Notes under the pieces: model-generated | Told to the model about the DNA's origin: nothing | Seen by the model: only the letters and a program-made list of their open reading frames with translations | Databases searched by the model: none | Assembly (NCBI RefSeq): GCF_003334315.1 | Contig: NZ_QOWR01000028.1 | Direction: 5' to 3' (one strand) | DNA from: Escherichia coli | Lineage (GTDB): Bacteria; Pseudomonadota; Gammaproteobacteria; Enterobacterales; Enterobacteriaceae | Length of the DNA stretch: 57,407 bases | Position numbers and translations under genes: made by a program | Part shown: one piece after another, positions 54,698 through 54,726 of the stretch | How the letters are laid out: each line of letters opens with the position of its first letter | Position numbering within the stretch: position 1 is the stretch's first letter

Positions 54698-54726
54698 AGA
54701 TTCTGCAGACACTGTCTGCAGAATTC
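54698..54726. repeat. hairpin palindrome (CAGAC-N3-GTCTG core with GAATTC-like arms) between convergent yhcH and yhcG
   Basis: AGATTCTGCAGACACTGTCTGCAGAATTC: 13-bp arms, 3-nt loop; same family as three copies inside yhcG. Confidence 0.85.

Follow-up and report, generated by a model that had tools for sequence, protein, structure and literature searches.

Why does a perfect palindrome stand in the short spacer between two convergent genes of Escherichia coli, and why do altered versions of it lie inside one of these genes? The question is raised by a stretch of 57,407 nucleotides (contig NZ_QOWR01000028.1 of RefSeq assembly GCF_003334315.1; the window hereafter), in which the string AGATTCTGCAGACACTGTCTGCAGAATTC is located at 54698-54726, between nanQ (yhcH) and yhcG. 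The original prediction described it as the fourth copy of a palindrome that also occurs within yhcG. The palindrome in the 59-bp spacer proved to be real (54700-54724; named P4 here), with three related ones (P1-P3) inside yhcG. Our analysis shows that P4 belongs to a YhcG-linked family of 25-bp DNA palindromes. This family is not a dispersed mobile repeat but a hallmark of YhcG/DUF1016 nuclease genes, and the constraint on it is Watson-Crick complementarity of the two arms on DNA, not a peptide and not an RNA fold.

P4 consists of perfect 12-nt arms and one central base (12+1+12). It lies 20 nt past the nanQ stop and 16 nt past the yhcG stop codon and is the sole stem-loop in the spacer, for which a fold of -22.7 kcal/mol (z = -5.5) was predicted. 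Written as a unit with a 3-nt loop (ATTCTGCAGAC-act-GTCTGCAGAAT), it has 11 of 11 pairs. The sequence CAGACNNNGTCTG is present at four places only within the window, those of P1-P4, and 0.00 matches to the 21-nt core of P4 at up to three mismatches were expected in shuffles.

The centres of P1-P3 lie at 55552, 55513 and 55474, 39 nt between neighbours. All four palindromes share the frame ATT...CAGAC-N3-GTCTG...AAT, and the bases between the common parts vary in a compensated manner (CTG/CAG, CGC/GCG, TGG/CCA). The in-gene arm pairs are unlike each other (CGCCAGAC/GTCTGGCG, CCGCAGAC/GTCTGCAG and TTTGGCAGAC/GTCTGCCAAA), with every unit self-complementary. Nearest to P4 is the in-gene stretch 55503-55523 (P2), with 2-3 differences over 21 positions. 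The proposal that P4 and the intragenic copies form one family thus stands, whereas their supposed identity does not, as the arms differ but are compensated. P4 also shares the codon register of yhcG: it reads ILQTVSAES, nine codons after the yhcG stop, and a natural stop-loss allele of E. coli yhcG (P0021, 391 aa) translates it. In strain FDAARGOS_1285 the sixth pair of P4 counted from the centre (k=6) is swapped from G-C to C-G, again compensated, and the centre base is also changed (C/G); outside P4, the 59-bp spacer of this strain matches the window exactly.

The family was defined as an odd palindrome of 25 bp with A-T at k=12, C-G at k=2, a stem of k=2-12 and a 3-nt loop. The consensus of 117 units is ATT-nnnn-AGAC-a-N-t-GTCT-nnnn-AAT. 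P4 fits this consensus, is linked to yhcG with P1-P3 inside, and keeps its arms complementary through compensatory change. Scanning one genome per species, we obtained 80 homologous loci from many bacterial phyla and archaea, 74 of which hold 133 in-frame units (1-4 per gene) in the inter-domain linker. The taxa with units include Proteobacteria, Bacteroidota, Verrucomicrobia, Nitrospirae, Elusimicrobia, Altiarchaeales and others. The distance of the units into the gene is 250-400 nt, their centre base falls on codon position 1, and tandem units are spaced by a multiple of 3 nt, most commonly 36, 39 or 48 nt.

By position, the arms are paired in 92-98% of units at k 2-8, in 63-71% at k 9-11 and in 95% at k 12 (A-T), and from k>=14 in about 25%, which is background. 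Centres with 11 of 11 pairs were found 37 times in 32,000 linker positions versus 4 times in 469,808 flank positions. The core occurs in several variants, all of them complementary (CAGAC/GTCTG, GAGAC/GTCTC, GAATC/GATTC, TCGAC/GTCGA, CTACC/GGTAG and CAGTC/GACTG). A scan of viral contigs with the NNN left unconstrained revealed 41 sites, 24 of them in DUF1016 genes, and the NNN was complementary in nearly all.

The encoded peptide motif is also found in family members just 36-45% identical to YhcG, always in the hypervariable FYxxY-LSWSHY stretch, and in three distant homologues the DNA showed real palindromes. Distant members without the QTxS motif keep degenerate units at the same place. A metagenomic DUF1016 gene (L133, protein P0255) has two decaying units at 489 and 517, 28 nt apart, with 9/11 and 8/11 pairs, which are translated in two non-canonical frames (SNLTDGVRQIK and KNDRQCLSNY); here the DNA element can still be recognised, the peptide no longer. 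Locus L005 has one palindrome just past the stop codon, in a layout like that of P4, and the core change of this satellite is compensated. In the literature on DUF1016, YhcG, COG4804 and PDC-S02 we found no description of these palindromes, although an earlier mention elsewhere is possible.

Covariation was analysed on the 117 units. Both sides change in 10 of the 11 pairs. Double-changed cells number 265 versus 69.9 +/- 6.2 in shuffles, and the covariation score is 0.551 versus 0.136 in shuffles and at most 0.118 in slid-partner controls. Across phyla, the pairs at k=2 (C-G), k=5 (A-T) and k=12 (A-T) hardly vary, and k=6-9 drift. The k=1 position (A..T) shows no covariation beyond base frequencies; the loop therefore measures 3 nt and the palindrome is unpaired at its centre. 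Since third-codon positions are never paired with each other in the stem, each compensatory change alters one amino acid or more. Residue 2 of the unit peptide covaries with residues 7-8 by a reverse-complement rule (W/AK, R/GE, G/DQ, C/GK, Q/VE), and unit peptides differ widely between core types (IxQTxSxE, ISESLIRK, ISYPMGSQ). Because the swaps alter amino acids and the peptides differ completely between core types, a protein-level cause is excluded; the peptide is a passenger.

RNA pairing was assessed by the frequency of wobble pairs. G·U accounts for 12 of 1287 cells. Where one partner of a pair is a third-codon position, a single transition (synonymous-type) would turn 223 Watson-Crick cells into G·T, versus 5 G·T cells that exist, with zero at k=7, 8 and 11; A·C cells number 21 versus 507 susceptible cells. 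Wobble is thus tolerated no better than a true mismatch, and an RNA hairpin therefore cannot be what conserves the family. At the centre of the unit C and G are about equally frequent, which leaves no strand-specific loop. The count of G·T versus A·C on the sense strand (11 vs 24) was considered as a sign of antisense-strand selection and rejected, since the asymmetry reflects third-codon-position bases. As the units of one gene differ yet stay self-complementary, recognition of the duplex by one dimeric protein explains them poorly; what is needed is either pairing within a strand (hairpin or cruciform) or templated copying from arm to arm.

Table 1. Positions in the window of the yhcG palindromes and the genes around them
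Feature	Position	Strand	Description
nanQ (yhcH)	54216..54680	+	last gene of the nan operon, convergent with yhcG; name from RefSeq matches
P4	54700..54724	.	intergenic 25-bp odd palindrome ATTCTGCAGACA-c-TGTCTGCAGAAT; satellite copy of the in-gene unit of yhcG
yhcG	54740..55867	-	375 aa; DUF1016_N residues 19-184 and YhcG_C PD-(D/E)XK nuclease domain residues 208-360 (Pfam)
P3	55455..55493	-	in-frame unit 3, 18-nt arms around AAAGATTTGGCAGAC-gct-GTCTGCCAAATCTTT; encodes KIWQTLSAKS
P2	55497..55529	-	in-frame unit 2, GGGAATTCCGCAGAC-acc-GTCTGCAGAATTCCC; encodes GIPQTPSAEF; closest relative of P4
P1	55539..55565	-	in-frame unit 1, AATTCGCCAGACA-a-TGTCTGGCGAATT; encodes EIRQTMSGEL

In the protein, P1-P3 cover residues ~100-137, between DUF1016_N and YhcG_C (Table 1). 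The AlphaFold model of YhcG is modest (predicted local distance difference test, pLDDT, 64) and reaches a pLDDT of 28-34 for residues 100-135; this stretch is predicted to be disordered and to link the helical N domain with the remainder of YhcG. For the yhcG mRNA three strong hairpins were predicted (-67.8 kcal/mol, z = -10.2). The DUF1016/YhcG family is large, with 21,241 cluster representatives at E <= 0.001, and yhcG matches the candidate defence gene PDC-S02 of PADLOC. The family profile had no relative among PDB sequences, and Foldseek with the modest YhcG model gave generic PD-(D/E)XK matches only, with E above 0.001. We infer a nuclease domain most akin to NucS/EndoMS and to Holliday-junction-resolvase-like enzymes.

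The number of units differs between strains. E. coli alleles of yhcG range from 349 to 382 aa, differ by whole units and have 1-3 of them; yhcG is one of the six length markers of the lineage-specific polymorphism assay (LSPA-6) of O157:H7 (PMC3514354). The alleles are mosaic at window positions ~55455-55620 (residues ~83-137), with either SAKNLRQMRLFYLFFQH… or STRNLWQFKNFYICFQR…, the STRNLWQFKNFYICFQR version being common to Pseudocitrobacter and Salmonella. Together with 97-100% identity over the remaining protein, this mosaicism suggests recombination around the palindromes.

A fifth unit, P5, lies 14 nt past the gltD stop in K-12. P5 and P4 flank an 8.3-kb block with gltF, yhcA, yhcD, yhcE, yhcF and yhcG. 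P4 is carried by ~3,712 of 5,426 complete E. coli genomes. In ~950 the block is missing; in this 'empty' allele nanQ is directly convergent with gltD, and the spacer of 67 bp has a single unit, AAATTCGCCAGACAcTGTCTGGCGAATTT, whose left flank is that of the nanQ side and whose right flank is that of the gltD side. In a further ~720 genomes yhcG is truncated exactly at the outer arm of P3 (L002/L003): the remaining yhcG and P4 are exchanged for unrelated 470 bp, whereby the C-terminal two thirds of yhcG are lost and P4 is absent. Independent breakpoints at units were also found elsewhere. In the viral contig L124, the interior of a DUF1016 copy is deleted from a unit almost to the 3' end, gene fragments in L055 and L064 start or end at units, and in L126 a 179-nt direct repeat (4686-4864 and 6008-6186) with two palindromic units per copy surrounds a toxin-antitoxin-like cassette. 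These comparisons show that members of the family vary in copy number and mark rearrangement breakpoints.

Matching palindromes number at most three per query and E. coli genome (six 'places', as both strands were counted), all of them chromosomal and all at the gltD-nan locus; a short-query BLAST of the E. coli genomes found no unit copies outside this locus. The strain comparison thus bore out the presence/absence polymorphism anticipated for P4 in the original prediction. The idea of a mobile or duplicating unit family fared less evenly: it is one family, but not a mobile one in the sense of repetitive extragenic palindromes (REPs) or miniature inverted-repeat transposable elements (MITEs), as its E. 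coli copies are restricted to the gltD-nan locus and it is an ancient in-frame constituent of YhcG/DUF1016 genes. In Salmonella, Citrobacter koseri and Pseudocitrobacter the order is gltD-yhcG-nanQ, with 1-2 in-gene units and ordinary terminators, and these three genera, the other enterobacterial ones examined, lacked satellites corresponding to P4 and P5.

P4 is not an intrinsic terminator. The terminator scan found no T-run after the stem on either strand and called nothing; the tails past the stem are UUCGAAACC in the nan direction and UCUUUAAAA in the yhcG direction. A search of Rfam with P4 at a permissive E-value returned no family, just sub-threshold chance matches to miRNA models (at most 23.6 bits, versus gathering scores of 45-100). 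In the Term-seq data of MG1655, a region of Rho termination lies at 3,368,581 (-), antisense to yhcG and ~400 nt beyond P4 in the nan direction (~window 55113 (+)), and a second one at 3,367,906 (+), 79 nt into the yhcG open reading frame (~window 55788 (-)) (PMC7815308). A stationary-phase antisense/divergent RNA, G0-10703, has been described at the yhcF-yhcG junction (PMC7967276).

The sister satellite P5 coincides with an mRNA 3' end. Term-seq placed the dominant 'primary' 3' end of gltD at 3,360,660 (+) (Adams et al. 2021, PMC7815308, supplementary file 1), which is 4 nt past the P5 stem (...GTCTGGCGAATCAAA|TTACTG), without a U tract; the coordinate convention of that table was checked on sgrS and gltB. 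At an intrinsic terminator, 3' ends are expected within the U tract, 7-9 nt beyond the stem. Because P5 carries this dominant 3' end, an RNA 3'-end hairpin role is plausible for P4 as well, and by analogy P4 most likely forms a 3'-end stem-loop that would stop exonucleases, not RNA polymerase. The doubt first expressed about a canonical terminator was thus justified, there being no U tract and the Rho region in the nan direction lying well beyond P4. The RNA-stabilising 3' hairpin proposed instead is plausible as a local role, given the 3' end at P5, but not as the cause that conserves the family, since wobble is not tolerated.

How can these observations be accounted for? The explanation that we tentatively prefer, and hold to be only a little short of probable, is that of YhcG-linked DNA units capable of forming a hairpin or cruciform and recognised by a nuclease or by repair enzymes, with satellites in Escherichia that serve as RNA 3' stem-loops. 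The unit would act in cis on the yhcG locus as a DNA structure of this kind, and would most likely serve the encoded nuclease, or the host's replication and repair enzymes, as a structure-specific site of recognition or recombination. Such a role would explain the copy-number changes, the breakpoints at units and the spawning of satellites. The two satellites of Escherichia, P4 after yhcG and nanQ and P5 after gltD, would have landed at the 3' ends of transcription units, where a stem-loop in the transcript, not itself an intrinsic terminator, may mark or protect the 3' end of the mRNA.

In a more specific version, which we consider possible but rather unlikely, gene and site make up a self-referential module. 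The predicted structure-specific nuclease (NucS-like or Holliday-junction-resolvase-like) would recognise a hairpin or cruciform site in its own gene, and through this site the gene would be controlled, or else be driven to rearrange, change in copy number and spread locally. In bacteria and archaea alike, the upkeep of the site would take precedence over the protein code, and the process would have left P4 and P5 as its footprints.

Several points weigh against a recognised hairpin or cruciform site. Binding or cutting by YhcG or another protein, and cruciform extrusion in vivo, are what we infer from sequence; with a stem of 11-12 bp and a 3-nt loop, the units are at the lower end of the sizes that can extrude. 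The Watson-Crick perfection could alternatively arise from purely mutational template-switch correction without function. The 'percent paired' values are partly circular, because units were chosen by a pairing threshold; the linker/flank enrichment, the viral scan with free NNN and the wobble test are free of that circularity. Six of the 80 loci have no clear unit. The satellites are not needed for yhcG, because Salmonella, Citrobacter koseri and Pseudocitrobacter do without them. Finally, Term-seq lists no 3' end at P4, under conditions in which the nan operon and yhcG were barely expressed (PMC7815308).

The main rival is a functionless, self-perpetuating quasi-palindrome, in which template switching copies one arm to the other in a permissive linker, slippage varies the copy number, and the satellites are by-products later co-opted as RNA 3' hairpins. 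Template-switch correction of quasi-palindromes is documented in E. coli, and its rate can exceed that of base substitution. At the known quasi-palindrome hotspots of E. coli (thyA and the lacZ quasi-palindrome reporters), imperfect repeats are driven to Watson-Crick symmetry, so that compensated changes without wobble are predicted. This mechanism accounts equally well for the Watson-Crick-only pattern, the lack of wobble intermediates and the frequent C-G/G-C swaps. The linker is disordered and tolerant, unit copy number varies within the species, and the centre base of P4 flips between C and G among E. coli strains. The double substitution in P4 together with the centre change fits arm copying in one event, although two separately selected changes fit as well. 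The hotspots, however, are mutational and arise in arbitrary sequences; they predict neither invariant positions nor deep conservation in a single family. The sharp stem boundary at k=12 and the near-invariant k=2, 5 and 12 argue for base-specific recognition, and the units persist at one position of one gene family in bacteria and archaea, with next to no comparable coding palindromes in the flanks (4 vs 37 in the linker). Nor is template switching an obvious source of new copies ~0.8 and 8 kb away. On balance we regard this functionless origin as unlikely, but worth serious consideration.

An element that acts at the RNA level would be selected as mRNA stem-loops for 3'-end stabilisation, attenuation or control of yhcG translation or decay. 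The in-gene units and the 3' satellites are all transcribed, strong hairpins are predicted in the yhcG mRNA, the gltD 3' end lies 4 nt past P5, and no stem-loop other than P4 lies between the two convergent genes. P4 is likely to have a local RNA effect, but this does not explain the conservation of the family: wobble is virtually absent (5 vs 223 susceptible cells), A·C is at least as common as G·T, and there is no strand-specific loop, Rfam match or U tract, with the Rho region ~400 nt beyond P4. As the cause of the family, RNA selection seems improbable to us.

An operator-type duplex palindrome, bound by a symmetric dimer of YhcG or of a regulator, would need no extrusion. PD-(D/E)XK enzymes commonly bind palindromes as dimers, and the perfect odd-centred symmetry, the invariant k=2, 5 and 12 and the tandem arrangement of units all agree with such binding. 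However, units of the same gene differ at k=6-9 and are self-complementary nevertheless (E. coli P1-P5, L014, L031 and L042), which a single protein specificity would not require, and positions that a protein does not read should not covary; we therefore judge an operator to be quite improbable.

A generic mobile palindromic element of the REP, MITE or Rickettsia palindromic element (RPE) type, inserted by chance in and beside yhcG, is very improbable. Several copies do lie within 1-8 kb, the intergenic ones occupy REP-like positions at gene 3' ends, and in-frame insertion is known for RPEs; but no more than three palindromes per query occur in an E. coli genome, at the gltD-nan locus only, homologues of many phyla have the unit at the same position and in the same codon register, and no associated transposase was found. 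We give least credit to selection for a 13-aa peptide repeat with the motif I-x-Q-T-x-S-x-E and a palindrome by codon coincidence, for although many family members show the motif and the in-frame units keep to a fixed codon register, the reverse-complement covariation of residues has no physicochemical logic, a changed core gives a completely different peptide, third-position bases stay fixed contrary to codon bias, the intergenic copies stay palindromic and the region is predicted to be disordered.

The units resemble several known elements in part. Like REPs and bacterial interspersed mosaic elements (BIMEs; REPs are also called palindromic units, PUs), they are short palindromes at gene 3' ends; those elements often lie between convergent genes, form mRNA stem-loops that block exonucleases and do not terminate transcription, and are recombinogenic. 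REPs have another consensus, however, and occur extragenically in hundreds per genome, whereas YhcG units are confined to the yhcG locus in E. coli, are mainly coding and belong to one gene family across phyla. P4 in particular has a sequence unlike the REP consensus, with four sites in the 57-kb window and at most three palindromes per genome. RPEs, too, are palindromic DNA read in frame to give a passenger peptide where the protein tolerates it, but they measure 100-150 bp, are lineage-specific and sit in many unrelated genes, while the YhcG unit has 25 bp and one homologous site in bacteria and archaea.

The attC recombination sites of integrons are likewise conserved as structure, with covarying arms, are read as folded single-stranded DNA and flank cassettes. 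They differ in length (57-141 bp), in their R'/R'' core (GTTRRRY), extrahelical bases and unpaired spacer, and in needing IntI; the 25-bp units have perfect 11-12-bp stems, a 3-nt loop, no bulges and no GTTRRRY. The RefSeq annotation of the K-12 gltD-nan locus contains no integrase or recombinase, and a tyrosine recombinase adjoins units in one viral contig only (L126). ToxI of type III toxin-antitoxin systems also consists of tandem units of ~36 nt, linked to a nuclease gene and variable in copy number. ToxI repeats, however, are near-identical direct repeats upstream of the toxin, untranslated and active as RNA, whereas YhcG units lie inside the open reading frame, diverge from each other and are under a DNA-type constraint. 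In none of the compared elements do a link to one gene family, a single homologous in-frame site and conservation in bacteria and archaea occur together.

The units offer a first concrete experimental handle on YhcG/DUF1016, a very large family without known function. They are a cis-element conserved harder than the protein's own linker sequence, and, in two domains of life, a clean example from nature of amino-acid sequence being dictated by a constraint on DNA structure. They explain the length polymorphism that makes yhcG an LSPA-6 typing marker of O157:H7, the three structural alleles of the E. coli gltD-nan interval with their breakpoints at units, and the end point of the gltBD mRNA.

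Insertion sequences are also present in the gltD-nan interval, which is generally a hotspot for structural change. IS5 lies in yhcE of K-12 (L004, 13319-14299) and IS1A beside nanQ in strain J2 (L003, 2666-3363). The 470-bp replacement contains an open reading frame of 101 aa (WP_000639208.1; 2697-3002 (-) of L002 in strain XYEH3934 and 3473-3778 (-) of L003 in strain J2) annotated as 'transposase'; having no match in Pfam or NCBIfam, it was not used as evidence of mobility.

Solitary units in viral contigs were considered as cassette boundaries, and this was rejected: those of L124 and L126 lie within duplicated or deleted remnants of DUF1016 genes. The remaining ones are heterogeneous, and some of them, for example the one in L108 between phage head genes, may be unrelated hairpins that fit the pattern. 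The cassette of L126 consists of a SocA-like antitoxin and an open reading frame of 126 aa, is adjoined by a tyrosine recombinase (6537-7598 (-)) of the XerA/integron-integrase-like type, and is also found next to the DUF1016 gene in L124. In L103, a large serine integrase gene and a repressor-like gene have between them two neighbouring perfect units (9950 and 9973), ~28 nt upstream of the integrase gene; this is the usual place of attP.

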